NCBI GenBank assembly: GCA_002869275.1
Contig: PKTF01000131.1
Span: 4,892 to 68,891, forward strand
Direction: 5' to 3'
DNA: 64,000 bases
From: Ignavibacteria bacterium
GTDB taxonomy: Bacteria > Bacteroidota > Ignavibacteria > SZUA-365
This document shows positions 3,865 through 61,411 of the stretch, in pieces (within the stretch, counting starts at the first letter, position 1; the number at the start of each line of letters is the position of its first letter). The translations under genes and the position numbers were made by a program. The notes under the pieces are model-generated. The model saw only the letters and a list, made by a program, of their open reading frames with translations, was not told the origin of the DNA and did not search any database.

Positions 3865-5427
3865 TCAGACCTTCGATCTCATCGTGATCACCGGCAAGAT
3901 CAGTTCCTCGAGAGACATTCCGCCATGCTGGAAACTGTCTCGATAGTAGGAGAGGTACTTGTTGTACTCCGTCGGATACACGAAGTAATGGTCTTCCTTC
4001 GCGATGATGTAATTCACTGTTACCCCGCGCCGGGGCAGCTTGTACTCTTCAGGATTCTTGATGTACATCGCGTGTTTGCTGTCGGCTTTAACATTGCGCC
4101 CGTATTTGTACCGGAGGTTTGTCGACGTCTCGCGATCTCCGAGCACCTTGCTGCCGCGCATGCAGCGCACACTCCCGTGGTCGGTCGTCACGACGATGGT
4201 GGCGTTGGGGGTCCGCGCGATCTGCTGGAACATGCTGTACAGATGCGAGTGTGTGAACCAGGTATTTGTCAGGGAGCGGTAAGCGGATTCATCCGGAGCG
4301 ATTTCCTTGAGGATGGGAAAGTCGGAACGGCTGTGCGCCAGCATGTCGACAAAATTGACGACGATGGCCGTGAGATGGTTCTTCACGAACGCGGAAATGT
4401 TGCCGACCATCTGTTTCCCGAATTCCGGATCGATGATCTTGATGTATTTCAAGTCATTACGGAGCTTTATGCGGCGGCGTTCGAGCAGCTTTTCGAGGAA
4501 TTCCTTCTCGTGTTTGTTCATCGAATAGTCGTCATCGTCCTTGTTTGCCCAGAGGTCGGGGAAGACACGTTCGATTTCACTCGGGTAGTATCCGCTGAAA
4601 ATGGCATTCCGCGCGTAGGGCGTCGCCGATGGCAGGATGCCCATGTAGAATTCCTTCTCGATGGTGTACAGCCCGCGCAGGTGCTGTTCCATCACGAGCC
4701 ACTGGTCATAGCGCATGCAATCGATGACGAAAAAGAACACCGGACCCTTGGAGTCGAGATGTGGCAGAAGGAAACGGTCCACGACCTGCGGAGAGAGGGT
4801 GACGTCGTCGTCGTCGAGCCAGTCGCGATAATTGCGCTCGACAAATTTGCAGAATTCCTGGTTGCACTCCTTGCGCTGATCGGCCATGGTTTGCTGCAAC
4901 CCGAGCTGTGGATGCTGGTCGAGTTCCAGTTCCCACTCCACCAGCTTTTTGTAAATCTCCACCCACTCATCGAGATCCAGCGGACCCTGCAGCTTCATCG
5001 TGACCTGGTTGAATTCGCGGATATAATCCTGCGCCGTACGGTCGCCGACGATGCGCTTTCCCTGCAAAACCTTTTTCGCGACGAGCAATATCTGGCTGGG
5101 ATTTACCGGTTTGGTGAGGTAATCAGCGATTTTCTCACCGATAGCCTCTTCCATGAGTGCTTCTTCCTCGTTTTTGGTCACCATGACCACCGGTACATTC
5201 GGCCGAACTTCCTTGATCGCGGAGAGCGTTTCGAGTCCCCCCATGCCCGGCATGGATTCATCGAGAAGGATCAGATCGATGCTTTCGCGAGTGACGAAGT
5301 CGAGCGCATCCTCACCGTTCGTGACCGTACTGAGACGGTAGCCTTTCTGTTCGAGATGCATGATGTGCGGACGGAGAAGTTCGACCTCGTCGTCCACCCA
5401 GAGAATATGTCCTTTGTCATCCGCCAT
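3865..5427 (-). CDS. porX: PorX-type response regulator: CheY-like receiver domain fused to a PglZ (alkaline-phosphatase superfamily) domain
   Basis: N-terminus ILWVDDE...LILLDESMPGMGG...VVMVT is a receiver domain with the phospho-acceptor Asp. The C-terminal about 380 aa is PglZ-like (FFFVIDCMRYDQW ... TTDHGS). Same architecture as T9SS regulator PorX. Confidence 0.8.
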   Translation of the reverse strand: MADDKGHILWVDDEVELLRPHIMHLEQKGYRLSTVTNGEDALDFVTRESIDLILLDESMPGMGGLETLSAIKEVRPNVPVVMVTKNEEEALMEEAIGEKIADYLTKPVNPSQILLVAKKVLQGKRIVGDRTAQDYIREFNQVTMKLQGPLDLDEWVEIYKKLVEWELELDQHPQLGLQQTMADQRKECNQEFCKFVERNYRDWLDDDDVTLSPQVVDRFLLPHLDSKGPVFFFVIDCMRYDQWLVMEQHLRGLYTIEKEFYMGILPSATPYARNAIFSGYYPSEIERVFPDLWANKDDDDYSMNKHEKEFLEKLLERRRIKLRNDLKYIKIIDPEFGKQMVGNISAFVKNHLTAIVVNFVDMLAHSRSDFPILKEIAPDESAYRSLTNTWFTHSHLYSMFQQIARTPNATIVVTTDHGSVRCMRGSKVLGDRETSTNLRYKYGRNVKADSKHAMYIKNPEEYKLPRRGVTVNYIIAKEDHYFVYPTEYNKYLSYYRDSFQHGGMSLEELILPVITMRSKV

Positions 5428-17270: not shown

Positions 17271-17732
17271 TCAGAAGGGGTAAACTACCTGTGCGGTATA
17301 AATCGGGCGCTCGGTGCGGTTGTCCCACTTGCGGACCAGCGTCTGGCAGTGGCGCGCGACACGTTCGGAACCGTCAAGCTGTGCCGTCTGGCTGATCGCG
17401 AACCTGCTCATGCGTGAGTCCTTGTATTCATAGAGGGCGAGAGCGGCCAGGATGCGGATACCGGCATCAGATTCGTTTTTCAGCTTATCCATCAGCGGGA
17501 TGATGGCGTAATTGAAGTCGTACTCAGGGTAGGCGCGCTTCAGATCGATCACCAGCTGCACATAGTCGGCCTGAACTTCGGCGGATGCATGCTGCAGACC
17601 TGCGGTCACGTTCGTTTCAATAAGTTCCTGTCGTTCCTGAGAGAGCGGGGGATTCGTTTCCGTTGCGAACAGCGAAGCGGGAACGGCGCAGATGACCAAC
17701 AGTGTCACCAGAGTAATCATTGACTTTTTCAT
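17271..17732 (-). CDS. Hypothetical secreted protein
   Basis: Start placed at MKKSMITLVTLLVICAVPASLFA (signal peptide, ATG at 17732); the longer track ORF extends upstream. No recognisable domain. Confidence 0.5.
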   Translation of the reverse strand: MKKSMITLVTLLVICAVPASLFATETNPPLSQERQELIETNVTAGLQHASAEVQADYVQLVIDLKRAYPEYDFNYAIIPLMDKLKNESDAGIRILAALALYEYKDSRMSRFAISQTAQLDGSERVARHCQTLVRKWDNRTERPIYTAQVVYPF

Positions 17733-18032
17733 AACGGCCTCCATTCGAGATCTATATAAGAATTTTGTGGTTACAACACTTACGTGTACGGCCGCCTGTA
17801 CGCAGAGTTGCACGCGGTTTCAGCATTGATGAGGGATTTATTTTTGCACCGCTTTTTTTATGTCCGAAGTGAAACTTTTTCTGTTTTTTATTGAGGCGGT
17901 CCCGCATCTCCATGTCCGGAAATGTCTGGCAGTGGAAGTACTGCCGACAAAAGCGTAACTTCCTGTGTGGCTGTGTGTCTGTTTCATTGACACACCCTCC
18001 TGGAATCAACCCGGCCTCGAAGTACACGATTC

Positions 18033-21000
18033 ATGAAAAAACACATTCGCTTTTTACGGACCATCCTGATATACGCTGCGGCATTGACCGTTGCGTTCAT
18101 CGTCGGCGAGGCGCAGGCGCAACTCAGCATTAACGGGAGTATTCCCCTCGAGACGCTCGTGCGAAACCATTTCATCGGCGGCGGAGCCCAGGTGAGCAAT
18201 ATCACTTACCAGGGCAACGCTGTAAGCATCGGCTACTTCAACGGTGTACGCTCGAACATCGGGATCGACGAAGGTGTGCTGCTGACCAGCGGCAGCATCT
18301 TCTATGCAATCGGTCCTAATACGATGGACGATATCACCTATCCATCGTTCATGCCGGGCGATCCGGACCTGGCCAACCTCGTACACTTCTTCACGCTGGA
18401 TGCCGCAGTGCTGGAATTTGATTTTGTTCCCTACCAGGACAGCGTGCATTTCGAATACGTGTTCGCATCGGAGGAGTATACCGAGTTCGTGGGTTCGGTC
18501 TACAATGACGTGTTTGCCTTTTTCATCAGCGGACCCGGCATCGTCGGCAAGCAGAATATCGCTCTCATCCCGGGTACGACTACGCCGGTAGCGATCAACT
18601 CGGTGAACCATCTCGAGCAGGTGCAGTATTACATCAATAATTACGGTGGCGCGACAGTTGAGTACGACGGCTTCACAACCGTACTCAAGGCTTCGGCGAA
18701 GGTCATCCCCTGTCAGAGCTATCATCTGAAACTGGCGATCGCCGATGTTTCAGACAACCTGCTCGATTCCGGGGTTTTTCTGAAGTCCGGCAGTTTCGAC
18801 GCCGGAAACCTCTTCGAGGTCGTCGCAATCCAGGATGCTCCAGAAGGAGGATGTGTCCCCGGTATCATCGAAGTTCAGCGTCTGGGGAACGTCGACAATC
18901 CGCTCACTCTGAAGTATTACGTGCAGGGTGATGCCACCAACGGTGATGACTACACGACCATTCCGGACTCGATAACATTTTCTGCCGGACAGTCAGCCAT
19001 CCAGATCCCGATTAATGCTCTCCGCGACTCGGTGAAGGACGGTGGCGAATGGGTCACCATCTACATCGAGGATATCTGCGGAACGGGACTCGTCCGTGAC
19101 TCCATTAAGATCCTCGAGATACCGGATATGGAACTGGAGCTGAGCGGCGATACGGTCATCTGCATCGGCTCTGAAATCACGTTGCGCGCGCAGGTGGCCG
19201 GCGGGAGTAATTTTCTCACACTCGACTGGAACGGGTTGGGAGATTCACCGGAACTGACGATCATACCGCAGATTTCCCGTCCCTTCGCCTTCTCCGTATT
19301 CGATTCCCTCACCGGCTGCCGGTTGACGGATACGGTGCATGTGAAGGTGGAGAAACCGCCTGCTGTCAGCGCCGGACCCGACAAAGTGATCTGTCCGGGA
19401 GGCAGTGCGATTCTCGAAGGAGAGGTCGTCGGTGGAACACCACCGTTTCAGATCGTATGGACTCCCATGACGGCCCTCAGCAATCCGGGCATGCTCATGC
19501 CGGAAGCGTCTCCGTCAACGACGACGACATATATTCTGACAGTGACGAGTGCAACGGGCTGTGTAGCGCGCGACACGGTTGTTGTGCGCGTCTCCGCAGT
19601 TGTGATCGACGCAGGTACTGATACCACGATATGCAATGGATCAGGACTGACCATCGGGGGAGTTGCGGGAGGCGGGGTTCCGCCATACACGTACCAGTGG
19701 GAGCCGGCGGCGGAGGTGGGTAATCCTTCATTGCCGTATACCACCGCAGCTCCGACTGCGACAACGACGTACCGGCTCACCGTGCGCAGCAGCAATAACT
19801 GTATTGCCGTCGACAGTGTGACGATCACCGTTTCTGACATTGCGCTGGATGCCGGTCCGGACCTTCGGCTCTGCGCCGGGGAGGCCAGGGTGATCGGTGA
19901 TACCGCCTGGACCACGCATGCGCCTGTCAGCTATGTCTGGGAACCGGAAGTAGGGCTCGACAGCAGGTTTATCCCGACGCCGACCGCTTCTCCCACCGTG
20001 AGCACGACATACACCGTGGTTGCCACAAATCGTTACGGTTGCGTCATGCGCGATACGGTGTACGTGGAAGTGAACGATCTGGAAATCGATGCCGGCGGAC
20101 CGCATGCCATTTGTCCGGGAGACAGCGTGCAGCTCGCTGCGGCAGTGCTCAGCGGGAGTACTCCCTATGTTTTCCGCTGGGACGCTGCATCGAGCCTCAG
20201 TGCAACGGATATCAACAATCCCTTCGCACGTCCCGCCATGAGCACCTGGTATCGCCTGACCGTGATCGACGGAGCCGGATGCGCGGCCACCGACTCAGTG
20301 CTCGTGACAGTCTGGCCTCTGCCGACCGTGGAAATCACTCCACTCGGTTCACCCGTATTCTGCCTCGGCGACAGCGTTCGACTTGATGCGGGATCGGGAT
20401 TTGCCAGTTATCGCTGGTCGACGGGCGAGACAACGCGCAGCATCACCGTACGTGACCCCGGATGGTACCAGGTCGCCGTCACCTCAGCGGATGGCTGTTC
20501 GGCCGTCTCCGACAGTATGGAAGTCATCGTCAGCGAACGACCCTCGCCTCGGATTACCGGTCCGCTTTCGCTTTGTGAGAATGAGAAAGGCGTGTACTCC
20601 GTGCCTGAGGTTCCGGGCTCCACCTACAACTGGACTGTAACCGGCGGGTTTATCACGGAAGGGCATGGCACTTCCAGTATTACGGTGCTGTTCGAGGACC
20701 CCGGCAGCTATCCCATCAGAATTGAACAGGTGTTCGGTTCGGCGTCCTGCCGTGGCGACACGCTGATTACCGTTACGGTGCATCCGAACCCCGAACCCGT
20801 GATCAGCGCAAACGGACCTCTCGCATTCTGTGAAGGGGAGAGCGTCATGCTGCTTGCACCGGCCGGGTTCGCCCGGTATGAGTGGTCGACCGGCGACAGC
20901 ACGCGTCAGATCACGGTCGTAGGCAGCGGATCGTATTCGGTGCGCGTTGTCAGCGCCGAGGGTTGTGAAGGGGTCTCGCCTCCGGTAGAGGTGACGATTC

Positions 21001-22334
21001 TTCCTCCGCCTGAACCCGTGATCGCCATCCTCACGCCGTTGCCTGTGTGCGACGGCGGAGAGATCATTCTCGGATTGACGGAGTCTTACGCGGCATACGC
21101 GTGGTCGACCGGATCAGACCAGAGCAGCATCGCCGTCACCAGCGCGGGGTACTACCGCGTACATGTCACGAACGATGACGGCTGCTCGGCGTGGTCGGAT
21201 TCAGTGTTTGTTGAATTCGCCCCCTTGCCCGATCCGGAGATTGCGCCAGACGGACCATTGTCGTTCTGCCAGGGCGATTCGGTACGCCTCTTCGCGACCG
21301 AGCTGTTTGTTCGCTACCTCTGGAACACCGGCGATACGACCTCATCGATCGTGGTGCGCAGCAGTGGAGATTATGCGGTTCGCGTCTGGACGGCAGACGG
21401 ATGCGATGGGCTTTCGAACGAGCTGACAGTGACGGTGTACGACCTCCCGCCGCTTCCGGTCATCACACGTGACGGCAGCATCCTGACCTCCACGCCTGCG
21501 GCGGAGTACCAGTGGTACCATGAGATCGACGGACGTTTCATCCGGATTCCCGGAGCGCAGGGTCAGGAGTTCACTGCGGTTTCCAACCGACGATATATCG
21601 TTGAAATCAAGGACAGATATGGCTGCACAGCCATATCCCTGCCGTACCGATGGACTGAGGAGATTCTGGCCACCTCCACGGTTTTGCTTCCTTCGCTCGA
21701 GGCATACCCGGGAGACATCGTGACCATCGATCTGCGTCTGGTGGAACAGCAGTACCTGTCGCTAATGGATGTGCATTCGTTCGAGGCGGAGGTGGCATTC
21801 AATGGCAGTCTCCTGGTTCCGACCGGAAGCACACCGCAGGGCAGACTTGAAAATGGATTTCGCATCATTCCGGTTGAGGGGGAATACGACAGCACCAGGC
21901 AGTTTCTCTCCCGCATGCAATTCCTGGCCACCCTGGGAAATGCCGAGTCGACACCGCTTCTCATCAGGCAGTTCTTCTGGAATCAACCCGATGTGGAGAT
22001 CACAACCATTGCCGGAGAGTTTTCGCTGGGAATCTGTCGTGAAGGCGGCGACAGGCTGTTCGATGCCACGGGGCAGCTCACGCTCGAGCCGAATCACCCC
22101 AATCCGTTCAATGCGATGACGATCATCACATACGAGATCATCGAACGCGGCCACACCGAGCTGTACGTGATGGACATGCTCGGCAGGAGGGTGGCGACGC
22201 TGGTTGCGGGTGAGGTCGAAGCCGGTCGTTACCAGGTTGCCTTCGACGCCGGGAGACTGCCGTCGGGTATGTATATCAGCGTGCTCCATACACCCACGCA
22301 GGTACGCATGCAGCGCATGAAATTGCTCAAATAG
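18033..22334 (+). CDS. Giant T9SS-secreted adhesin-like protein: choice-of-anchor L domain, Cys-containing tandem repeats, type-A C-terminal sorting domain
   Basis: Signal peptide. Residues about 30-260 carry the choice-of-anchor L signature (GDPDLANL...LDAAVLEFDFVP...FEYVFASEEYTEFVGSVYNDVFAFFISGPG). Two families of tandem repeats follow. The C-terminal about 80 aa match the Por-secretion type-A sorting domain (PNPFN...LYVMDMLGRRVATL...SGMYISVL...MKLLK). Confidence 0.85.
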   Translation: MKKHIRFLRTILIYAAALTVAFIVGEAQAQLSINGSIPLETLVRNHFIGGGAQVSNITYQGNAVSIGYFNGVRSNIGIDEGVLLTSGSIFYAIGPNTMDDITYPSFMPGDPDLANLVHFFTLDAAVLEFDFVPYQDSVHFEYVFASEEYTEFVGSVYNDVFAFFISGPGIVGKQNIALIPGTTTPVAINSVNHLEQVQYYINNYGGATVEYDGFTTVLKASAKVIPCQSYHLKLAIADVSDNLLDSGVFLKSGSFDAGNLFEVVAIQDAPEGGCVPGIIEVQRLGNVDNPLTLKYYVQGDATNGDDYTTIPDSITFSAGQSAIQIPINALRDSVKDGGEWVTIYIEDICGTGLVRDSIKILEIPDMELELSGDTVICIGSEITLRAQVAGGSNFLTLDWNGLGDSPELTIIPQISRPFAFSVFDSLTGCRLTDTVHVKVEKPPAVSAGPDKVICPGGSAILEGEVVGGTPPFQIVWTPMTALSNPGMLMPEASPSTTTTYILTVTSATGCVARDTVVVRVSAVVIDAGTDTTICNGSGLTIGGVAGGGVPPYTYQWEPAAEVGNPSLPYTTAAPTATTTYRLTVRSSNNCIAVDSVTITVSDIALDAGPDLRLCAGEARVIGDTAWTTHAPVSYVWEPEVGLDSRFIPTPTASPTVSTTYTVVATNRYGCVMRDTVYVEVNDLEIDAGGPHAICPGDSVQLAAAVLSGSTPYVFRWDAASSLSATDINNPFARPAMSTWYRLTVIDGAGCAATDSVLVTVWPLPTVEITPLGSPVFCLGDSVRLDAGSGFASYRWSTGETTRSITVRDPGWYQVAVTSADGCSAVSDSMEVIVSERPSPRITGPLSLCENEKGVYSVPEVPGSTYNWTVTGGFITEGHGTSSITVLFEDPGSYPIRIEQVFGSASCRGDTLITVTVHPNPEPVISANGPLAFCEGESVMLLAPAGFARYEWSTGDSTRQITVVGSGSYSVRVVSAEGCEGVSPPVEVTILPPPEPVIAILTPLPVCDGGEIILGLTESYAAYAWSTGSDQSSIAVTSAGYYRVHVTNDDGCSAWSDSVFVEFAPLPDPEIAPDGPLSFCQGDSVRLFATELFVRYLWNTGDTTSSIVVRSSGDYAVRVWTADGCDGLSNELTVTVYDLPPLPVITRDGSILTSTPAAEYQWYHEIDGRFIRIPGAQGQEFTAVSNRRYIVEIKDRYGCTAISLPYRWTEEILATSTVLLPSLEAYPGDIVTIDLRLVEQQYLSLMDVHSFEAEVAFNGSLLVPTGSTPQGRLENGFRIIPVEGEYDSTRQFLSRMQFLATLGNAESTPLLIRQFFWNQPDVEITTIAGEFSLGICREGGDRLFDATGQLTLEPNHPNPFNAMTIITYEIIERGHTELYVMDMLGRRVATLVAGEVEAGRYQVAFDAGRLPSGMYISVLHTPTQVRMQRMKLLK
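19150..20320 (+). repeat. Five tandem protein-coding repeats of about 75-80 aa (SprB-repeat-like C-x-G...GG-x-x-P-Y-x-Y-x-W ... TTY-x-LTV ... GC-x-x-D-x-V) inside the adhesin gene
   Basis: Read directly from the translation: ICPGGSAILEGEVVGGTPPFQIVW..., ICNGSGLTIGGVAGGGVPPYTYQWEP..., LCAGEARVIG...VSYVWEP..., ICPGDSVQLAAAVLSGSTPYVFRWDA... Confidence 0.7.
20320..21655 (+). repeat. Six tandem protein-coding repeats of about 72-80 aa (P-x-P-x-I ... FC-x-GDSV-x-L-x-A ... Y-x-WSTG-x-TT-x-SI-x-V ... GC) inside the adhesin gene
   Basis: Examples: FCLGDSVRLDAGSGFASYRWSTGETTRSITV, FCEGESVMLLAPAGFARYEWSTGDSTRQITV, FCQGDSVRLFATELFVRYLWNTGDTTSSIVV. The second and sixth copies are diverged. Confidence 0.7.
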
Positions 22335-23644: not shown

Positions 23645-23683
23645 CAAAGATTCACTTTGCATCAATTAGCAAGGATTGTGTGC

Positions 23684-24193
23684 ATGAAAAAGTTTGTTGT
23701 ACTGCTCGCAGTGTTCATCAGTATCGGATCTCAGGCGATTGCCCAGGATCTGTCCTCGGTTGACCTGTACCTTCGCGATATCGACGGAGACGAGCATTCG
23801 TTCCAGGACTATCTCGCAGATGTCCGTGACGCCGGCGACAAAGGCGCCGTCATCATCAGCTTCTGGGCCATGTGGTGCGAACCATGTAAACAGGAGATGA
23901 AAGCTCTTGTCAAGACGTATAAGAAATACAAGGACAAGAACCTGCATTATCTCGCCATCAACCTCGATAACCCGCGCAGCCTGGCCAAGGTCAAGGCCTA
24001 TGTAAAGGCTCAGAAACTGCCTTACGATTTCTGGCTTGATCCGAACAGCGAAGTTTTCAAGAAGCTGAACGGTCAGGGCATGCCGTATTCGCTGATCGTC
24101 AATCAGAATGGCGAACTGATTGCGAAACGCACCGGGTACATTGCCGGTGACGAAAAGGAGATCGAGGAAGACATCAAGAAAATCCTGGAGTGA
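23684..24193 (+). CDS. TlpA-like thiol:disulfide oxidoreductase (thioredoxin/redoxin family), secreted
   Basis: Signal peptide MKKFVVLLAVFISIGSQAIA. Active site WAMWCEPCKQE (CxxC). Confidence 0.8.
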   Translation: MKKFVVLLAVFISIGSQAIAQDLSSVDLYLRDIDGDEHSFQDYLADVRDAGDKGAVIISFWAMWCEPCKQEMKALVKTYKKYKDKNLHYLAINLDNPRSLAKVKAYVKAQKLPYDFWLDPNSEVFKKLNGQGMPYSLIVNQNGELIAKRTGYIAGDEKEIEEDIKKILE

Positions 24194-27642: not shown

Positions 27643-28770
27643 ATGAAATTTACCGCAGTGAGCAGCGATCTGCACAAGGCGCTTTCGAAGATCATCAGCG
27701 TCGTTCCGTCGAAATCGACACTGCCCGTGTTGGAGAACATTCTGTTCGAACTCACCGGCAATGACCTTCGACTCACCGCCAGCGATCTCGAAATATCCAT
27801 GGCGGTCAGCATGCAGGTAGAGGGTGAAGCCGACGGCAAGGTGGCCGTGCCGGCCAAGAAACTGAATGAAACGCTGCGTGCCCTCACAACGAGAGATATG
27901 ACCTTCACTGCGGATGATGCCTCAAACCGTATTACGCTGAAAACCGATCAGGGCGAGTACAAGATGGCGGGAGAGAGCGCCTCAAATTTCCCGGAGGCCG
28001 AGGCGGTGCAGGAAGAATTTTCTCTGCAGCTCGATCCGGACCTTCTGCGAGGTATTATCGCGCGCACAGTGTACGCGGTCAGCACAGACGATTTGCGTCC
28101 TTCGATGATGGGTGTGCTGTTTCAGTGGAAGGGCGAAGAGTTTTTCGCTGTCGCAACCGATGGACATCGACTCGTACGAATCAAACACGCCGGCGTGCTG
28201 GCAGAGGCGAATACAGAAGGGAACCGCGATGTCATCATCCCCGCAAAGGCCCTGAATATTGTTTCAAAGTCCCTCGGTGACGGTGAAGTCAATGTTGTTT
28301 TTGGTCGCACGAACGTCCGCTTCACGTTCGGTGAGATGTCGCTGCTCAGTCGCATTATCGACGAGCGCTATCCGAACTATGAAAGCGTCATTCCGCTGGA
28401 CAACGACAAGCAGCTCACCGTCAGCCGGCTTGCGCTGATCTCTGCAGTGCAGCGCTGTTCCATCTTTTCCAATGCCATTACCAATCAGATTCGTTTCTCC
28501 GTGAGCAAGGAAGAGCTGCGTGTTTCTGCGGAAGACGTCGATTTCGGCGGGGAAGCCCGCGAGGCCGTGCCGGGAGCGTTCTCGGCTGACGATGACCTCG
28601 AGATCGGATTCAATGCACGATACGTCAATGAAGCACTGCAGCATCTGTCCTCCGAAGAAGTGGATTTCTATTTCAGCGCACCGACCCGGGCCGGGCTGAT
28701 TCAACCCAAAGAGCAGAAAGATGACCTGGAGATCCTCATGCTGGTCATGCCTCTTCGTCTCAACGCCTGA
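27643..28770 (+). CDS. dnaN: DNA polymerase III beta sliding clamp
   Basis: 375 aa, three-domain clamp; MKFTAVSSDLHKALSKI ... conserved C-terminal MPLRL. Confidence 0.9.
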   Translation: MKFTAVSSDLHKALSKIISVVPSKSTLPVLENILFELTGNDLRLTASDLEISMAVSMQVEGEADGKVAVPAKKLNETLRALTTRDMTFTADDASNRITLKTDQGEYKMAGESASNFPEAEAVQEEFSLQLDPDLLRGIIARTVYAVSTDDLRPSMMGVLFQWKGEEFFAVATDGHRLVRIKHAGVLAEANTEGNRDVIIPAKALNIVSKSLGDGEVNVVFGRTNVRFTFGEMSLLSRIIDERYPNYESVIPLDNDKQLTVSRLALISAVQRCSIFSNAITNQIRFSVSKEELRVSAEDVDFGGEAREAVPGAFSADDDLEIGFNARYVNEALQHLSSEEVDFYFSAPTRAGLIQPKEQKDDLEILMLVMPLRLNA

Positions 28771-31603: not shown

Positions 31604-33595
<1,992 letters not shown>

Positions 33596-38446: not shown

Positions 38447-40054
38447 TTAAAAGGGGCGAGAGAATCGCAGGACAAGGCTGGGGGATTCGGAGCGGTCGAG
38501 GCGCCATGCCGCACCGATACGGAAGTTTCCGTCTTCACTGCCCAGCGCAACACCGATATCACTTTTCCAGTTATTGAATACTGCGTCGTCGGTCATCGCA
38601 ACATCGAGTGCGCCGTTCGTCACGTCTCGTGCGGTGAGCGGCATCGCTCCGTTGGTCGATCCGGCGTTGGCGAAGAAGATGATGTTCGTGCTGCGGAGTA
38701 CATTCTTTGCCCAGCCGCGGGCTTCATGGACCAGAGTACTGCGGATGATGAGTTCTGCACTGAGAAGCATTACGTGGCTGCCCGCGAATTCCTTGTAACG
38801 GTAGCCAGGCAGGGTACCTGGTCCGCCGAGCTCGAACGCGCGCTGCTGCGGAATGAGTCCGTCACTGAAGCCGCCCCTGAACCGAGTATTGAAATTGAAA
38901 TGCGAACCCAGCGGCTGATACCGGCGAATATCGGCAATCAACTGTGTGAATTCGAAGTCGCCGGCGGCAAACCCACCTGCCATTTCGTACTGCAGCTGTG
39001 CCTCCCAGCCATCCGTCCTGGTGTCGAGACTGGCAAGAGTGGTGAGCCCGGCAGACAGCACGACACTGTTCACGTTGCCGTCGTTGATGTGCGGGTTCGG
39101 ACGGAAGACCTTGTCTCCACCGAAGATCGACCAGTTGGTGGCACGATTCATATTCCCGTAGGTATCGTGTACGTAGGCCGCACTTGCACGGATGTTCAGT
39201 TCGTCCTCTCCGCGATAGTACCACGCCGCCGTGACATTGAAGCCGCGGCGCTCGAAATAGTCGAGGAAATCTTCACGCGCAAGGATAGATGTGATGGTGT
39301 TTTCGTCACGATCGAACGACCACTGATCTTTGGAGTCGGTAAAGCTGTAGCCCTCACCGCTGATCTCGATGATCATATCCTTGAGGTAGAAGGGGATGCC
39401 GAGGCCCAGGCTGTAGCGCCAGGTGTGGTTCGCGAAGCCGTACCCCAGTGAGGCGGTGCTCACGATACGCGGTTTACTGTGCCAGTACAGGCGCTTCGGT
39501 TGCGCGAAACCGAGGTAGAGTCCCTCGACGCGATTATACCTGAGAAAGGATTCCTGCAGGCGCGTGGTGACGGGGAACATCCACGGGAAATTCCCGGGAT
39601 ACTTCTTGAAAAAGTTTTCCTCGAAATTGAATTGGTCTCCTTCAGTGTCATCACTCTGCCACCATGACCATTCGTCATCTTCTTCTTCCCAGCCTTCTTC
39701 CCATTGTTCCCATTCCTCTTCGTCATCCGCCCATTCATCTCCACCGGCGGCAGAGGGATTCACCTGATACTCGAGTGCTTCGAGACGCGCCTCCGCTTTC
39801 GAGATGCGCTGTTCGAGCGTTTCGATTGTACTCTGCTTTTCAGCGTCCGATACGTCACTGTTTTTCAGACGTGTCATTTCCGCTTTGAGGCGGTCCAGCT
39901 CTTCGGTCAGTTTTTTCTGTTCAAGTTGAATTTTCTCGAGTGCTCGCAGACTGTCATCCATGACGGGATCAGTCTGGCTCCAGGCGTATTGCGAGAACAC
40001 GGGGAGGGCGAGCATCAGGATGAGGCATATGCGTAATGTGGCACCAGCTTTCAT
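38447..40054 (-). CDS. Omp85/BamA-like outer-membrane barrel protein with N-terminal coiled coil and acidic Trp-rich segment
   Basis: Signal peptide. Coiled-coil heptads (LEKIQLEQKKLTEELDRLKAEMTRLK ... EARLEALEYQV). Acidic Trp-rich run EWADDEEEWEQWEEGWEEEDDEWSWWQSDD. C-terminal barrel with the RAFELGGPGTLPGYRY motif and terminal Phe. Confidence 0.6.
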   Translation of the reverse strand: MKAGATLRICLILMLALPVFSQYAWSQTDPVMDDSLRALEKIQLEQKKLTEELDRLKAEMTRLKNSDVSDAEKQSTIETLEQRISKAEARLEALEYQVNPSAAGGDEWADDEEEWEQWEEGWEEEDDEWSWWQSDDTEGDQFNFEENFFKKYPGNFPWMFPVTTRLQESFLRYNRVEGLYLGFAQPKRLYWHSKPRIVSTASLGYGFANHTWRYSLGLGIPFYLKDMIIEISGEGYSFTDSKDQWSFDRDENTITSILAREDFLDYFERRGFNVTAAWYYRGEDELNIRASAAYVHDTYGNMNRATNWSIFGGDKVFRPNPHINDGNVNSVVLSAGLTTLASLDTRTDGWEAQLQYEMAGGFAAGDFEFTQLIADIRRYQPLGSHFNFNTRFRGGFSDGLIPQQRAFELGGPGTLPGYRYKEFAGSHVMLLSAELIIRSTLVHEARGWAKNVLRSTNIIFFANAGSTNGAMPLTARDVTNGALDVAMTDDAVFNNWKSDIGVALGSEDGNFRIGAAWRLDRSESPSLVLRFSRPF

Positions 40055-43789: not shown

Positions 43790-43965
43790 GAAATCAAAAA
43801 ATGCTGGTGATGAAGTAACCCAATATACGAAAGCTGTGTCATACTCGTGACGCCCATTTCCCGCATGCGACCTTTTGGCTTGACTCGCCGGTCATATGAC
43901 GCTATTATTGAGTTGATTTACAGTAATGAATCATGACATACATCGTTTGCACCGCAGGTACACTC

Positions 43966-46900
43966 ATGCCTTCATCCTTACGCTTTTCTTTCGTGGTATT
44001 TCTCATTCTGATGCTGCTCGCCCCATTGAGCGGACAGGCGCAGTATTTCGGCAAGAACAAGGTGCAGTACACGGATTTTGAATGGTACTACATTCAATCG
44101 CAGCATTTCGACGTGTATTACTCCAACGACGGGTACGATCTCGCTGCGTTCACGGCCAAGGCTGCTGAGGAAGCCCTTATCAGTATTCAGAAAACACTGA
44201 ATTTTCAGATCAGTGCGCGTATTCCGTTCATCGTCTACAACTCGCACAATGATTTTCAGCAGACCAACGTCGTGGGATCGTATCTGGAAGAAGGCATCGG
44301 TGGAGTGACGGAGCTGTTCAAGAACCGGGTCATCATTCCGTTCGAGGGTAATTACAGCCAGTTTCGGCATGTGATACATCATGAGCTGGTTCACGCCGTC
44401 ATCAACGAGATGTTCTATGGCGGTTCGCTGCAGGCGGCCGTGACCAACCGTATCCAGTTGATACTGCCGCTGTGGATGAATGAGGGACTTGCGGAATATG
44501 AGGCGCTCGGCGGGTGGGATACCGATTCCGACATGTTCATTCGCGATGCCGCGACGAGCAACTACCTGCCTCCGATTCCCTACCTCTACGGCTATTTCGC
44601 ATACCGTGGTGGACAGTCCGTGTGGTGGTACATCTCGCAGACCTACGGTGAACAGAAGGTGGGAGAGGTGATCAACAGCATCCGGTCTTCCCGGGGCATC
44701 GACAAGGGATTGAAGAAGTCCCTCGGTCTGACCCTCGAAGAACTTTCCGAACGCTGGCTGAGAGAGCAGAAACGCATTTATTATCCGGACGTTGCGACGC
44801 GAGAATCTCCGGTGGATTTTGCGAAACGGCTGACCGATCACAAGAAGTCGGGAAGTTTTTACAATACCAGTCCGGCCATTTCGCCCTCGGGCGACCGCGT
44901 GGCTTTCATTTCGAACCGGGATGATTTTTTCTCGGTGTATGTCATGTCAGCGATCGACGGTGGATCGGTTCGCAAGCTGATAGAAGGAACGAATACCAAC
45001 GATTTCGAGGAACTGCATCTGCTGACGCCCGGATTGTCGTGGTCGCCCGATGGAAAGTACATCGCGATTGCTTCGAAGGCCGGTGCCAATGACGCCATCA
45101 GTATCGTGGATGCCGAAAGCGGCGACTATGAGGTGCTGCCGGTATCGAAGGACGGAATATTTTCAGTGCAATGGTCACCCGATGGACGCAGCCTCGCATA
45201 CGTGGGGAATACCGTCGCGCAATCGGACATCTGGGTGTACGACCTGGAAAGCAAGTCCACGGTGAAAATGACAAACGATGTGTTTTCCGACGCTGATCCC
45301 ATATGGTCGCCAGACAGCAAGTCCATCTATTTCACCTCCGACCGCAAGGCGTTCCTCCGTCCCGAAGATATCCCCGAAGGCTTCGATATTTTCGACCATG
45401 ATTATTCTCAGATGGACCTGTATTCCCTGGACGTGGAGTCGGGAGAAATCACCCGGATCACCAATACTCCGAAAGCCAGCGAATCGAATCCCCTCGCAGC
45501 CCGAGATGGAAAGCGTCTCATGTTCATCTCAGACCGGAACGGTATCAAGAACCTGTTCGTGCACGATCTTGAAAGCGGCAGGGAATACCCCATCACCAAT
45601 TCGCTGTCGGGTGTGTACCAGGCATCGATCTCCGCCGATGGAAACAAACTCGTGTTTTCATCCATGTACGAAGCAGGGTTCGACATCTTTCTCATGAAGT
45701 CTCCGTTCGAGGACGAAGCCGTCGTCGATCTGCTGCCGACGCTGTATGTCGAACAGCAACTGGAATCCCTGGAGATGCCGCTACCCGCCGGGGGTGAGCT
45801 TGCCAGTACATCGTCGGTGGGCCTCGACGGTTCGGCGGATCCGACCGAGTCGCTGCAGCACAGCGATGAGGTTGTCGTCCAGCTCGGAGCTCAGGAAACT
45901 GGCGTCGCCGATAGCACCGGCCGGCCATCGAGAACAGGCGACCGTATGCTTTTCGGCAGCGATCTCGGAGGTTCGCGTGAGAACGCCAGAGCGCAGGCTT
46001 TTTCGCTGCAGAACTTCGTCAACGAGGAAGGCGATTTCGTCATCAACAAATACAAGCTGAGCTTCTCGGCGGATCTGGTCTACGGCAACGCAGGGTACAG
46101 TACGTTCTACGGCGTGCTCGGGACGACGCAGATGGCGTTCAGCGACATGCTCGGGAACCATCAGATCCTTTTCCTCACCAACCTGATCGGTGATCTGAAA
46201 AACAGTGATTACGCGCTCGGGTATTATTATCTGCCCGACCGGATTGACTGGGGTATCAACGGCTTCCACAGCGCACGTTTCCTCCTGGCTTACACCGGCG
46301 GACTGTACGAGGACCTCGTGCGATATCGGCAGTTCGGCTTCGGGCTATCCGCAGCGTATCCATTCGACAAGTTCAATCGTATCGAAGGATCGCTGACATG
46401 GATGAGCCTCTCGCAGGAGAATCTCGATCGCCCGGATCTTCCCATCAGTGAATTTTCCGTGATCGTGCCCAACGTGGGGTACGTGCATGACAATACGCTC
46501 TGGGGGATGTGGTCGCCTGTCCGTGGATCGCGCTACGAGATGCGCGCTTTTGGCAGTCCGGGAATCGGCAGCAGGCCGCTTTCGTTTTTCTCCCTGACTT
46601 TCGATTACAGAAAGTACTATAAGTTCTGGGGAGATTTCTCCATCGTTCTGCGCGGTTCTGGCGGCGGCAGTTTCGGACGCAATCCGCAGCGCTTCTTCAT
46701 CGGCGGTACCGAAAACTGGATCAACCGCACGTTCGAAAATGGTCGCATTCCCATCGACAGTGAAGAGGACTTCGCGTTCCTGACAGCGGCGCTGCCGCTG
46801 CGCGGTTATAACTACAACGCGCGTCTTGCAAGCCGTTACGGACTCGGCAACGCTGAGATCCGTTTCCCGGTCGTCAAGTATTTCCTCGGCGGCGTGCTTC

Positions 46901-47154
46901 CATACATCCTGCAGACGGTCAACGGCGCAATCTTCCTCGACGTGGGAACGGCCTTTGACGAAATCGATGCATACCGTGCGTTTACCCGAGATGAAAACGG
47001 TAACCTGATGAACCAGGACCTGCTGATCGGTACCGGTATCGGAGCGAGGATGTGGTTCCTCGGCTTCCCGCTGAAATTCGATGTGGGTTGGTCTTACAAC
47101 GGAGCCGGCTTCTCGACGCCCATCTATTATTTCTCGCTGGGCGCGGATTTCTGA
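43966..47154 (+). CDS. Mosaic outer-membrane protein: HExxH metallopeptidase-like module, PD40/TolB-like beta-propeller repeats, C-terminal Omp85/BamA-like barrel
   Basis: Signal peptide MPSSLRFSFVVFLILMLLAPLSGQAQ; the track ORF starts 33 nt earlier. HVIHHELVHAV zincin motif. Repeated SPDG/SPSGD blocks (SWSPDGKYIAI, QWSPDGRSLAYV, IWSPDSKSIYFTSDR). C-terminal LRGY ... GIGARMWFLGFPLKFDVGW ... SLGADF barrel signature. Confidence 0.65.
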   Translation: MPSSLRFSFVVFLILMLLAPLSGQAQYFGKNKVQYTDFEWYYIQSQHFDVYYSNDGYDLAAFTAKAAEEALISIQKTLNFQISARIPFIVYNSHNDFQQTNVVGSYLEEGIGGVTELFKNRVIIPFEGNYSQFRHVIHHELVHAVINEMFYGGSLQAAVTNRIQLILPLWMNEGLAEYEALGGWDTDSDMFIRDAATSNYLPPIPYLYGYFAYRGGQSVWWYISQTYGEQKVGEVINSIRSSRGIDKGLKKSLGLTLEELSERWLREQKRIYYPDVATRESPVDFAKRLTDHKKSGSFYNTSPAISPSGDRVAFISNRDDFFSVYVMSAIDGGSVRKLIEGTNTNDFEELHLLTPGLSWSPDGKYIAIASKAGANDAISIVDAESGDYEVLPVSKDGIFSVQWSPDGRSLAYVGNTVAQSDIWVYDLESKSTVKMTNDVFSDADPIWSPDSKSIYFTSDRKAFLRPEDIPEGFDIFDHDYSQMDLYSLDVESGEITRITNTPKASESNPLAARDGKRLMFISDRNGIKNLFVHDLESGREYPITNSLSGVYQASISADGNKLVFSSMYEAGFDIFLMKSPFEDEAVVDLLPTLYVEQQLESLEMPLPAGGELASTSSVGLDGSADPTESLQHSDEVVVQLGAQETGVADSTGRPSRTGDRMLFGSDLGGSRENARAQAFSLQNFVNEEGDFVINKYKLSFSADLVYGNAGYSTFYGVLGTTQMAFSDMLGNHQILFLTNLIGDLKNSDYALGYYYLPDRIDWGINGFHSARFLLAYTGGLYEDLVRYRQFGFGLSAAYPFDKFNRIEGSLTWMSLSQENLDRPDLPISEFSVIVPNVGYVHDNTLWGMWSPVRGSRYEMRAFGSPGIGSRPLSFFSLTFDYRKYYKFWGDFSIVLRGSGGGSFGRNPQRFFIGGTENWINRTFENGRIPIDSEEDFAFLTAALPLRGYNYNARLASRYGLGNAEIRFPVVKYFLGGVLPYILQTVNGAIFLDVGTAFDEIDAYRAFTRDENGNLMNQDLLIGTGIGARMWFLGFPLKFDVGWSYNGAGFSTPIYYFSLGADF

Positions 47155-49230: not shown

Positions 49231-49321
49231 CATCATGTCCACGACGGTTCGGAACTGCTTCCGCCACACGCCCCTGTTGCCATCCACGGGACAACGGTAT
49301 CCATTTGCGTTCCCGGGCGGG

Positions 49322-51550
49322 ATGCGGAAGAGGGTAGTGAGAGTGTTGGCAATACTGCTGTTTCTCGTCTCGAGTGACGCGACCGCGCAGCAGGGAACGG
49401 TACGAGGTGCAACGGTCGACGCTGAGAGCGGGATCGCGGTCCCCGCCGCGTACCTGTTTCTTCATCCTGCCGGACAGCCCGGAGCGGGCCGTGATCTATC
49501 CAGCGCAGAGGACGGAAGTTTCGCTTTCCAGAAGCTCTCCGCAGGGAGATACGTGCTGCAGGTCAGCCGCGCGGGATACAACACTTCCATGATGGAATTG
49601 GATGTGGGCGAAAAGGAGGAGAGCAATGTCCTGCTGTATCTGCAGCCGCATGTATATCAGACTGAACCCGTGGTCGTGACGGGGACGCATATGCATTCTC
49701 GCGTCGAAAACGTTGACGAAATCTCTCATGTGCTGCGGGGTAAGGAGCTGGATCGTGAGCTCGGATTGACACTCGCAGCGACTCTGAAGAATGAGACCGG
49801 CATCGCGATGCGAACCATGGGACCGGCTCCAGCCCGTCCGGTCATCCGCGGACTGGGCGGAGACCGCGTCCACTTGAGTGAAGATGGGAACAAGACCACG
49901 GACTTATCGGCTTCTTCGCCTGATCACGCCGTGACCATAGAACCATTTGCCGTGGAGCGGATCGAGGTGCTGCGCGGGCCGAAAGTTCTCATGCAGTCCC
50001 CGGTTACGATCGGAGGGGTGGTCAACGTTGTGCGCCACGAGATTCCGCAGGATATGCATGGCAATATCATCGGAACAATGGGGATGTACGGTGAGACGGC
50101 GAACGGTGGATTGCTCGGCGCTGCCACGGCTGAGATCCCTGTGCACCAGTTCATGACCCGTGGTGAATTCAGTCACCGGCAGACCGGTGACCTCCGCACG
50201 CCCGAAGGAGTGCTGTCGAATTCCGACAGCCGGACGACAAGTCTTTCCTTCGGCGGCAGCTACATCGACCGTGACAGCTATGCTGGAGCAGCCTATCGCC
50301 ACTTCGACCTGGAGTACGGAATTCCCGGCGGTTTCGTCGGCGCGCATCCAGACGGCGTGACCATCGCTCTCGAGCGCCGACAGGTTAATGCGCGCGCCGC
50401 ACTGGTGTTCGACGCAACACTCGTCCATGACGTGACCCTCCAGCTGAGCCGGGCGTATTACCGGCACAAGGAGTTTGAAGCGACGGGGGCGATCGGCTCC
50501 GAGTTCAGCATCGTGAGTTATCCCGGTCGTATAGCGCTCAGCCACCATTCTCTTGGTCCGTTCACCGAAGGAAGCGCAGGGGTGAACTTCGAGTACCGCG
50601 ATTTCAATGTGGGCGGGTTTGTGTTTACTTCACCGAGCACATCGTTGAATGTCGCTCCCTACGTGTACGAACGCTGGGCCGCCGGTCCTTTCAGTCTGGA
50701 GGCGGCGCTGCGATACAACCATGATGTCATTACACCACTGCGGGAAAACCCTGATGCCCGCACCGGCCATATCCGACAGCGAACCTTCCATACCTGGTCC
50801 GCTTCCACAACACTGTTGTTCGAACTGACCGACATTGTGCATATCGGAATGAACCTCAGCCGTTCCAGCCGGGTGCCGACGATTGAGGAGTTGTTCTCCG
50901 AAGGACCGCATCTCGCAGCGTACTCTTACGAAGTGGGTAATCCCGACCTCGAGGCTGAGCACGGGTACGGGAGCGAACTGTTTCTCTACCACAGATTCAG
51001 CCGGCTGTATTTCAACATCAACTTTTTCAGGAATCAGATGTATTCGTATATCCTCCCGCGCAATACCGGGGAGGTCAATTACGCGACATTTCTTCCGATC
51101 TATGCCACGACGGGGGTTGATGCATTGATCTATGGTGCGGAGGCGCAGGCTGAATTGCTCGTGACAGAAAAACTGTCACTCAACGCTGCGCTGAGTTTCA
51201 GCCGCGGGTCGTTTACCGGAAGTGGAGAGGCGCTGCCGCAGATTCCGCCCATGAAGGGACGTCTGGGAGTGAGCTGGAAGGAAAAGGCCTGGCGAATCGG
51301 AGCGGAGAGCGAGTTCGCTGCGCGGCAGGATCGTGTGGACGAATTCGAAGAGGAAACAGCGGGCTATGCTATCGTAAGCGGGTACGTGCAGTATTCGTTC
51401 ACCACGCAGGGACAGGTGCACAATATTTCCGTTACAGCTGAAAATCTGTTTGACCAGCCGTATCGGAATCATCTGTCACGCGTGAAGGTTATTCTGCCCG
51501 AGGCTGGGAGAAATCTCCGACTGACGTACAAGCTGCATTTCCAGCTGTAG
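49322..51550 (+). CDS. TonB-dependent outer-membrane receptor with N-terminal carboxypeptidase-regulatory-like domain
   Basis: Signal peptide MRKRVVRVLAILLFLVSSDATAQ. CarbopepD_reg-like block (GTVRG...DAESG...A.V...SDENGNF-like), plug domain, 22-strand barrel ending LTYKLHFQL. TonB-box-like region near EPVVVTGT. Confidence 0.75.
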   Translation: MRKRVVRVLAILLFLVSSDATAQQGTVRGATVDAESGIAVPAAYLFLHPAGQPGAGRDLSSAEDGSFAFQKLSAGRYVLQVSRAGYNTSMMELDVGEKEESNVLLYLQPHVYQTEPVVVTGTHMHSRVENVDEISHVLRGKELDRELGLTLAATLKNETGIAMRTMGPAPARPVIRGLGGDRVHLSEDGNKTTDLSASSPDHAVTIEPFAVERIEVLRGPKVLMQSPVTIGGVVNVVRHEIPQDMHGNIIGTMGMYGETANGGLLGAATAEIPVHQFMTRGEFSHRQTGDLRTPEGVLSNSDSRTTSLSFGGSYIDRDSYAGAAYRHFDLEYGIPGGFVGAHPDGVTIALERRQVNARAALVFDATLVHDVTLQLSRAYYRHKEFEATGAIGSEFSIVSYPGRIALSHHSLGPFTEGSAGVNFEYRDFNVGGFVFTSPSTSLNVAPYVYERWAAGPFSLEAALRYNHDVITPLRENPDARTGHIRQRTFHTWSASTTLLFELTDIVHIGMNLSRSSRVPTIEELFSEGPHLAAYSYEVGNPDLEAEHGYGSELFLYHRFSRLYFNINFFRNQMYSYILPRNTGEVNYATFLPIYATTGVDALIYGAEAQAELLVTEKLSLNAALSFSRGSFTGSGEALPQIPPMKGRLGVSWKEKAWRIGAESEFAARQDRVDEFEEETAGYAIVSGYVQYSFTTQGQVHNISVTAENLFDQPYRNHLSRVKVILPEAGRNLRLTYKLHFQL

Positions 51551-60409: not shown

Positions 60410-61411
60410 TCATAGTCCCAGGCGTAGGGTAATACGATGAACGCCGCCAAGGCGTCCGAATTCAGCGTACGCGTAATCCACGCCGCCGCGTCCGAAACCG
60501 ATCGGGGCGTTGATGCCCGCACCGGCAGTCAGTCCTTCTTCGTCGACGTTCAGCTTGTATCCGGCGCGTACAAAGAAGAGTTCGTTCCAGGCATACTCCG
60601 CACCGACGGATACGTTTTCGCTGTTGTCGTTCGGATGGTTGAGCTGAATGGACGTCGTCAGCCGGTTGTAGTCATCCTCATAGGGCTCGAAGGCGAATCC
60701 GATACGGAACATCGTTGGAGGAGAAAACTCCTGGAAGGAAGAAACCTCTTCCCCGCGCGGGAGGTCGACGGTGCCTTCGGGAGCCACGTTGTTTCCAAAA
60801 TTTGAAACGGTGACCGAAAACCGTGTGCTCCCGAGTCCGGTCCAGTAATACGTCCCCAGGTCGATCATGACCGCGCGCGTTTTCAGCACGTCAATGGTTT
60901 CCTCCACGTATCGTACTGTGGCACCGAAGGAAAACTGTGCGGTGAGCTGCCGCGCGTAAGAGAGTCCGATCCCGATGTCGCCGTAGCTGAAATAGCGGCC
61001 GGTTCCGAGCGGCTGTGTCTCGGTGCGCACTTCCATGTCCTCGGTATGCAGAGCGGTGAAGGAAAGTCCGACCGCGTCTGATTCCGACAGGCGGTAGATA
61101 CCCGCAACGAATTCGTGCTGCAGGTCCACCACCCAGTTCGTATGCGAAAACATCGCTTCGTGTCCCGCACACTGGACCATACCGGCGGGATTGTAATGGA
61201 GCGAGGACGCATCATCGGCGACGGCTATGAACGCTTCGGCCATGCCGACTGCTCGTGCGCCTGTCCCGATCTTGAGGAACTGCAGGGAGGAAATGCCCGC
61301 GCGCTGTCCGCCGAGAAGCGGTATCAGCTGCGCCTGGGAGGATGAAATGAGAGTCAGCAGCAGCAGTGCCGTTGCGGATATTCGCAGAAATGTGGTCATA
61401 ACATGTTTCAT
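60410..61411 (-). CDS. PorV/PorQ-family T9SS-associated outer-membrane protein
   Basis: Signal peptide, then FLKIGTGARAVGMAEAFIAVADDASSLHYNPAGM, which matches the conserved N-terminal block of the PorV/PorQ (FadL-like) family; 333 aa. Confidence 0.6.
   Translation of the reverse strand: MKHVMTTFLRISATALLLLTLISSSQAQLIPLLGGQRAGISSLQFLKIGTGARAVGMAEAFIAVADDASSLHYNPAGMVQCAGHEAMFSHTNWVVDLQHEFVAGIYRLSESDAVGLSFTALHTEDMEVRTETQPLGTGRYFSYGDIGIGLSYARQLTAQFSFGATVRYVEETIDVLKTRAVMIDLGTYYWTGLGSTRFSVTVSNFGNNVAPEGTVDLPRGEEVSSFQEFSPPTMFRIGFAFEPYEDDYNRLTTSIQLNHPNDNSENVSVGAEYAWNELFFVRAGYKLNVDEEGLTAGAGINAPIGFGRGGVDYAYAEFGRLGGVHRITLRLGL

Follow-up and report, generated by a model that had tools for sequence, protein, structure and literature searches.

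A fixed-length repeat protein with a choice-of-anchor L head and a reusable C-terminal cohesin-fold cassette at an Ignavibacteria locus

We analysed a 64,000-nucleotide (nt) stretch of the Ignavibacteria bacterium contig PKTF01000131.1 (hereafter the window), in which the plus strand carries at 18033..22334 an open reading frame (ORF) that begins with ATG, encodes 1433 amino acids (aa) and is by far the longest of its region according to ORF listing and translation. The homologue search showed that database entry P0001 is identical to the 1433-aa product and additionally gave 25 full-length orthologues (P0002 to P0026) of 1412-1473 aa with 48-79 % identity. The ORF, which had been proposed in a preliminary description of the locus, is hence real, as judged from its start codon, its translation and the identical protein, and we annotate it, stop codon included, as the complete gene of a type IX secretion system (T9SS) cargo protein. 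That description had divided the protein into four parts: a choice-of-anchor L head, two families of repeats and a C-terminal sorting domain. All named parts are indeed present, but about 240 aa had been left out, which belong to a Calx-beta domain behind the head and to a cohesin-fold module just N-terminal of the sorting domain. From the N-terminus, and all on the plus strand, we read a predicted Sec signal peptide (aa 1-29, 18033..18119), the choice-of-anchor L head, a beta jelly-roll (aa 30-257, 18120..18803), the Calx-beta domain (aa 258-364, 18804..19124), repeat family A with the units R1-R5 (aa 365-762, 19125..20318), repeat family B with R6-R11 (aa 763-1204, 20319..21644), the cohesin-fold module (aa 1205-1335, 21645..22037), a conserved flexible linker REGGDRLFDATGQ (aa 1336-1348, 22038..22076) and the T9SS type A sorting domain (aa 1349-1433, PNPFN ... 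MKLLK, 22077..22331). The signal peptide was assigned by eye from the sequence: its n-region (MKKHIRFLR), hydrophobic core and c-region with the predicted cleavage site AQA|Q are all recognisable. Gln30 is invariant in 21 orthologues, and its position directly after AQA fits the Q-rule of Bacteroidetes (PMC5837995, PMC10653852).

In the head, the NCBIfam model choice_anch_L (NF038133) matches aa 42-255 with 255.2 bits (E 4e-76, cut-off 27) over model positions 2-219 of 219, which confirms the choice-of-anchor L domain of the preliminary description, and matches to PF26766 (Choice_anch_L) are precomputed for the identical protein P0001 and for orthologues. An AlphaFold model of aa 28-365, calculated from the orthologue alignment, has a mean predicted local distance difference test score (pLDDT) of 87.6 and a predicted template modelling score (pTM) of 0.81. 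The Calx-beta domain is recognised by PF03160 with 27.9 bits against a cut-off of 27, and the model shows the Calx-beta fold as well. Among the orthologues the head is the most conserved part of the protein, with a mean pairwise identity of 71 % and 87 of 228 columns invariant. Solved structures, when searched with the head sequence, yielded no homologue, and a literature search on choice-of-anchor L gave nothing specific. A GH16-like catalytic motif was considered in the head and discarded, the second Glu being absent from EFDFVP.

Between the head region and the C-terminal part lies a stalk of repeats. We compared the 11 candidate units by pairwise Smith-Waterman alignment against shuffled controls and built repeat hidden Markov models (HMMs) that were trained on the strong units of 20 orthologues. 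Both families were recovered by the self-alignment, with shuffle z-scores of 14-40, so that the earlier count of five plus six repeats in two families is a fair summary; a self-BLAST of the whole protein returned the identity match alone. Family A consists of Ig-like units of 77-81 aa of the Ig_7 type, each with an invariant cysteine (Cys) pair: the divergent R1 (365-441), followed by R2 (442-521), R3 (522-601), R4 (602-681) and R5 (682-762). The z-scores are 14-28 among R2-R5 and 6-17 for R1, and the family A HMM gives 95-101 bits on R2-R5 and 22 bits on R1, on which it was not trained. In family B, four PKD/Ig-like units of 73 aa each align strongly with one another (z 20-40), namely R6 (763-835), R8 (921-993), R9 (994-1066) and R10 (1067-1139). 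Two further domains belong to this block. R7 (836-920, nt 20538-20792) is a distinct domain of the PKD_6 type (PF19408), which scores 45.4 bits when R7 is scanned alone and 40.1 bits on the whole protein (cut-off 25). R11 (1140-1204, nt 21450-21644) is degenerate and retains a single Cys (C1198); it is modelled as a beta-sandwich with a pLDDT of about 90, and its region gives a weak Ig_7 match (E 0.062). The repeat HMMs match R7 and R11 weakly, with 6.2 and 4.6 bits, respectively. Because such weak matches also occur across the families, it is evident that families A and B are related to each other.

With Ig_7 (PF19081) at 45.6 bits on the whole protein (cut-off 27.3) and PKD_6 both above their Pfam cut-offs, the Ig-like character of the repeats is established. 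When the repeats were scanned singly, R7 alone passed, and the other nine that were scanned (R1-R6 and R8-R10) stayed below every cut-off. The proposed likeness to SprB repeats had to be given up: PF13573 reaches 16.6 bits on the whole protein and 19.8 bits on R3 alone, short of its cut-off of 28. The Cys pair that had been described for every repeat is invariant or nearly so for R1-R10 in 21 orthologues, but it is missing from R11 with its one Cys.

The stalk has a fixed length. We compared the lengths of the individual regions in 20 orthologues of 47-79 % identity. The head measures 230 aa with two exceptions (232 and 238) and the Calx-beta domain 107 aa with one exception (106). R2-R4 have 80 aa each, R5 81 aa, R6 73 aa, R7 85 aa, R8-R10 73 aa each and R11 65 aa, and the sorting domain spans 87 aa. 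R1, with 77-79 aa, is the sole stalk domain whose length varies, and it does so by two residues. The alignment with the 79 % orthologue runs over all 1433 residues with zero gaps. The expectation that the repeat number differs from strain to strain is therefore contradicted by these data at the level of orthologues: the number of repeats and the lengths of R2-R11 are identical throughout. At the DNA level, Tandem Repeats Finder and a repeat finder detected just two matches of 21-33 nt with 73-81 % identity. Since the longest match between repeats is 33 nt and 73 % identical, a substrate for recombination is lacking, and on these near-empty searches we rejected recombination-prone repeats. At the protein level the repeats share about 30-45 % identity, from which we conclude that they are ancient. 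That the stalk length has been frozen across such a deep divergence argues that the length itself is functional.

The genomic surroundings lead to the same picture. A scan of genome contigs with the single protein gave one true orthologue locus, L001, the other 15 loci being Ig-repeat matches only. The neighbouring housekeeping genes are kept in five other loci (L001, L017, L019, L021 and L022). Upstream, this conserved neighbourhood holds a divergent 153-aa gene whose product has an apparent signal peptide; downstream it comprises the genes for an EVE-domain protein, a HAD hydrolase, a TlpA-like thioredoxin, a DUF6029 protein, RNase G and DnaN. Farther upstream the loci differ, with an S41 peptidase, nadC and a NUDIX gene in three of them and VWA-domain genes in two. 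From the shared neighbours and equal lengths we conclude that this is a core gene, passed on vertically, whose architecture has been frozen, which is the opposite of a strain-variable repeat protein. The gene is under purifying selection, which is strongest in the head: against the 79 % orthologue, the ratio of non-synonymous to synonymous substitution rates (dN/dS) amounts to 0.068 for the whole gene, to 0.013 for the head and to 0.10 for the cohesin-fold module, all of which are rough values because dS is saturated. The mean pairwise identities are 66-68 % for linker and sorting domain, 42-58 % for the stalk repeats and 49 % for the cohesin-fold module.

Two of the neighbours deserve a comment. 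The divergent gene at 17271-17732 (-) encodes the 153-aa protein, which carries an apparent signal peptide and has no match in Pfam or NCBIfam. Its pairing with the cargo gene is kept in 5/5 syntenic loci, including the two that have VWA genes instead of nadC and NUDIX, and a functional link of the two products is possible. At 23657-24193 (+) lies a gene for a TlpA/ResA-like periplasmic thiol-disulfide oxidoreductase, which is found two genes downstream in the syntenic loci. In a distant orthologue locus labelled Ignavibacteria (L020, 10341-11636), a 431-aa thioredoxin-like gene follows immediately downstream. Such neighbours are suggestive given the 25 Cys of the cargo protein, but genes of this kind are common, so coincidence is possible.

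We then turn to the C-terminus. The type A sorting domain model TIGR04183 matches aa 1356-1428 with 26.7 bits, above its cut-off of 23, and its fold is the beta-sandwich known from T9SS sorting domains of solved structure, so that the canonical type A domain of the preliminary description stands. Among five NCBIfam matches at E up to 0.1 there was no type B sorting model. For the orthologues P0010 and P0024, matches to Por_Secre_tail (PF18962) are precomputed, the one of P0024 being marked 'faint'. The AlphaFold model of aa 1140-1433, again based on the orthologue alignment, has a pLDDT of 86.8 and shows for aa 1205-1335 a cohesin fold, that is, a nine-strand jelly roll. Between this module and the sorting domain the model contains a 10-residue segment of low confidence (aa 1336-1345, model residues 197-206, pLDDT <50). 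The linker to which this segment belongs is nevertheless conserved, with 68 % mean identity for aa 1336-1348 among orthologues and with G1338, G1339, R1341 and L1342 invariant. We regard REGGDRLFDATGQ as the probable processing site of a PorU-type sortase.

At the level of sequence, the assignment of the module to the cohesins is faint. Pfam Cohesin (PF00963) does not match the window protein at E up to 10 and recognises 2/15 orthologue slices, with a best E of 0.0094; the module profile meets the solved cohesins 1g1k and 2vn5 at a non-significant E of 0.75-1. A crude regular-expression search for dockerin-like paired calcium-loop motifs found none in the 64-kb window, a literature search on cohesins together with the T9SS gave nothing specific, and the local copies of Pfam and NCBIfam hold no model that covers the module. 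We also searched with the module itself. In an exhaustive HMMER search with a 136-position module profile, at least 1735 protein clusters contained the module when E up to 1e-3 was allowed, and 830 did so when the limit was set to 1e-10. A word-indexed search with the same profile gave 2 matches and missed known orthologues, which reflects its limited sensitivity and not rarity of the module. The distance between the end of the module and the C-terminus is 92-101 residues (median 94) for 81 of the 84 best hits. It is followed by a conserved linker CREGGxRLFD and by a type A sorting domain, and the three together span about 230 aa. The host proteins, of about 250 to 2400 aa, come from Ignavibacteria-like and Bacteroidota metagenome-assembled genomes. 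The longer ones have unrelated N-terminal parts, for example DUF7948 with SBBP propeller repeats or NHL/SGL propellers, together with Por_Secre_tail ends, and in none of them is the module covered by a Pfam model. The cassette relatives P0127, P0128, P0131 and P0140 pass PF18962 on their own scores. Four named examples among ten that were looked up are called "T9SS type A sorting domain-containing protein" or "hypothetical protein" and come from genomes labelled Ignavibacteria or Bacteroidota. In all four host proteins that we read, a domain of the R11 type stands directly N-terminal of the module. Module, linker and type A domain at a fixed C-terminal position under unrelated heads amount to a reusable cassette; stalk, cohesin-fold module and sorting domain are reused under different heads by related bacteria. 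Most hosts of less than 400 aa appear to be fragments cut off at contig ends. We had considered the short proteins of 240-300 aa, which consist of module and sorting domain only, as free-standing anchored cohesins and rejected this idea for the four that were read: three of them have no signal peptide and begin within an Ig repeat, as expected for contig ends, and the fourth, P0132, likewise shows no recognisable signal peptide at its start.

The region in front of the gene contains a putative promoter element. The divergent intergenic region with the 5' leader covers 300 nt (17733..18032), where the start of the upstream gene is set to 17732 because its orthologues are called at 153 aa. As had been described, this region is AT-richer than its surroundings, with a GC content of 0.47 compared to 0.54-0.61 in the flanks. 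The box TATTTTTG (TAnnTTTG), which had been likened to the Bacteroidota -7 element, does exist at 17839-17846, 187 nt 5' of the ATG, but its role as a promoter element is only plausible. The box is conserved in three of seven orthologous loci. The block GGATTTATTTTTGC recurs in the loci with 79 % and 57 % identity, and the four other loci have no TAnnTTTG upstream of the gene. Across the 64-kb window the motif is in fact rarer than chance, with 5 copies compared to 11.8 expected from shuffles; only two of them, at 17839 and 48331, are correctly oriented and have a gene downstream. A sigma-70-type promoter or terminator was not conspicuous in the upstream region. In the 5' leader we further found a conserved block AACTTTTTxTG at 17870-17885 (+), an inverted repeat GGAAGT-N18-ACTTCC at 17934-17963, which is kept in the 79 % orthologue, and a downstream block AAAAxCGTAACTT (AAAAGCGTAACTTCC in the window, AAAAACGTAACTTTCC in L021), which is the only part recognisable also in the 57 % orthologue. 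The predicted RNA fold of the whole leader is marginally more stable than that of shuffles (z -2.18). Rfam and tRNA scans of the window gave no match.

Taken together, we favour with some confidence a reading in which the product is a fibre-like protein on the surface (or outside) of the cells of an uncultured Bacteroidota lineage and most likely acts in adhesion or binding. Its export would very probably proceed via the T9SS. In a first step, the protein would leave the cytoplasm by the Sec pathway and be cut by signal peptidase I after AQA29, exposing Gln30, which following the Q-rule would probably cyclise to pyroglutamate. In the periplasm it would fold, with ten Ig/PKD-like domains that probably form one disulfide each. 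The T9SS would next recognise the type A domain and transport the protein across the outer membrane, as known for type A cargo in general (PMC4804311, PMC9143113, PMC12618676). By analogy to type A cargo of Porphyromonas gingivalis, a PorU-type sortase may then cut off the sorting domain in the flexible linker. The C-terminus created in this way would be joined to anionic lipopolysaccharide, following the example of P. gingivalis (PMC4804311, PMC9143113); alternatively, the protein would be released into the medium (PMC10202324). The mature rod, built from the cohesin-fold module, 11 Ig-like domains and the Calx-beta domain, would measure about 50 nm, if about 4 nm is assumed per beta-sandwich domain. 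Such a rod would hold the conserved jelly-roll head at a fixed distance from the cell, where it could bind a conserved ligand. The presence of a T9SS, at least of part of its regulatory apparatus, is supported by a PorX equivalog (NF052313, 729 bits, cut-off 300) in the window, a 520-aa response regulator with a PglZ domain at 3865-5427 (-).

Several points speak against this interpretation. The core T9SS genes sprA, porV, porU and gldKLMN are absent from the 64-kb window. The margin of TIGR04183 over its cut-off is thin (26.7 compared to 23), and Por_Secre_tail (PF18962) remains with 20.7 bits under its gathering score of 27. Every relative stems from a metagenome-assembled genome. For some type A cargoes, release takes the place of anchoring, so that attachment to the surface is not certain. 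Finally, the dN/dS of the head is unusual for the tip of an adhesin that faces variable targets and could instead indicate an enzymatic or housekeeping role in the envelope.

The last point leads to one of the alternatives, according to which the head is a jelly-roll enzyme acting on glycans, similar to GH16 glucanases or PL7 alginate lyases, so that the protein would be a surface-tethered enzyme on a stalk; we regard this as improbable. Far less credible still is a strain-variable adhesin whose tandem repeats expand, contract and recombine between strains. The protein does have tandem Ig-like repeats, and more distant relatives that share its head have lengths of about 1300 to 2400 aa. However, the constant repeat number and unit lengths in 20 orthologues, in which R1 alone differs by its two residues, the gap-free alignment with the 79 % orthologue, the two short and imperfect DNA matches and the age of the repeats all argue against it, and we consider this explanation close to refuted. 

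The fate of the C-terminus allows two further alternatives to the anchored fibre. The sorting domain could be removed and the protein released into the medium or a biofilm matrix without covalent anchoring. T9SS effectors are indeed directed either to the medium or to the cell surface (PMC10202324, PMC12618676), and the sequence does not separate the two fates. On the other hand, the best-studied type A cargoes of P. gingivalis are anchored to anionic lipopolysaccharide (PMC9143113, PMC4804311), and a stalk of fixed length makes most sense with one end fixed to the cell, which renders release unlikely in our view, though worth keeping in mind. The cohesin-fold module could moreover be a true cohesin that recruits dockerin-like partners, which would turn the protein into a T9SS-anchored scaffold for a surface complex. 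This idea derives from the modelled fold. It is met by the missing Pfam Cohesin match, the non-significant profile matches to solved cohesins, the failure to find a dockerin-like motif in the window and the low constraint on the module, the weakest of any part of the protein as judged by dN/dS and identity. That the module is rigidly coupled to the sorting domain would be equally compatible with a structural or secretion spacer, comparable to the IgSF domain of RgpB (PMC4804311). We are accordingly very doubtful about a true cohesin. Somewhat easier to entertain, though still unlikely in our view, is that the module accompanies the type A sorting domain as a distinct unit not yet covered by domain models and has its own role; it may dock partner proteins at the cell surface, or this lineage may need it for secretion or anchoring.

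Comparison with known systems places the fibre-like protein in an established family. Its NCBI-named orthologues P0007, P0008, P0009, P0013, P0014 and P0024 share architecture and neighbourhood (1431-1449 aa, 48-60 % identity) and are entered as 'choice-of-anchor L domain-containing' or 'T9SS type A sorting domain-containing protein', with no difference in kind. The protein is in this sense an ordinary T9SS cargo or adhesin-like fibre and another orthologue in a family that NCBI already names. More distant are relatives from Bacteroidia and Flavobacteriia (P0036, P0047 and P0068), which combine a head of the same family (PF26766 / NF038133) with Ig_7/PKD-type repeats and are 30-33 % identical over about 80 % of the query. 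These are annotated with a 'gliding motility-associated C-terminal domain' and, unlike the type A protein here, end in CHU_C (PF13585), a type B ending, which suits the name choice-of-anchor; type B sorting domains use shuttle proteins of the PorP/SprF type (PMC9143113, PMC12618676). Their lengths vary from 1300 to 2400 aa, in contrast to the fixed length here, and their alignments leave the C-terminal ~16-20 % of the query unmatched, the part that contains the cohesin-fold module and the type A cassette. RgpB of P. gingivalis likewise has a Sec signal peptide, a beta-sandwich sorting domain and a beta-sandwich domain directly before it, and it serves as the model for processing by PorU and for attachment to anionic lipopolysaccharide (PMC4804311). 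It differs in that it is a protease, has about 700 aa and lacks a repeat stalk, and its pre-sorting domain has an Ig fold, not a nine-strand jelly roll of the cohesin type. The cohesins 6kgc, 2vn5, 1ohz and 2xdh have no significant sequence similarity to the module, which has no known dockerin partner and is fused to a T9SS sorting domain instead of SLH or sortase anchors. With SprB and RemA of Flavobacterium and with LapA-type adhesins the protein shares the design of a beta-sandwich repeat stalk with a distal functional domain and one anchored end. SprB, whose repeat model failed here, has a type B sorting domain and is much larger than 1433 aa. Unlike such fibrillar repeat adhesins, the present protein has only 1433 aa and a strictly fixed length.

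Apart from the cargo gene, the window is rich in outer-membrane proteins. Two Omp85-family proteins, one of which gives a weak DUF5686 match below the cut-off, and two TonB-dependent receptors are encoded at 38447-40054 (-), 51552-54224 (-), 49235-51550 (+) and 61408-63948 (-). A 1073-aa protein at 43933-47154 (+) combines Peptidase_MA_2 with TolB-like PD40 beta-propeller repeats and has, by a crude motif check, no T9SS-type tail. Downstream of the locus, dnaN and gyrB lie close together at 27643-28770 and 31616-33595 (+), and this proximity suggests that the window may be near the chromosomal replication origin. The cumulative GC skew climbs steadily over 14-27 kb.

In summary, the single gene is one more T9SS cargo of a named family, and little depends on it. 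The architecture could still be of wider use. The stalk provides a counter-example to the assumption that surface proteins with tandem Ig repeats vary in copy number, and the head, which is conserved like a housekeeping enzyme, is a reasonable target for structural and binding studies. A domain model for the large cohesin-fold family would improve the annotation of T9SS cargo in Ignavibacteria-like lineages. If the module does have a role of its own, this together with the fixed 11-domain stalk would make the family a display system of the "molecular ruler" kind and set it apart from ordinary adhesins.

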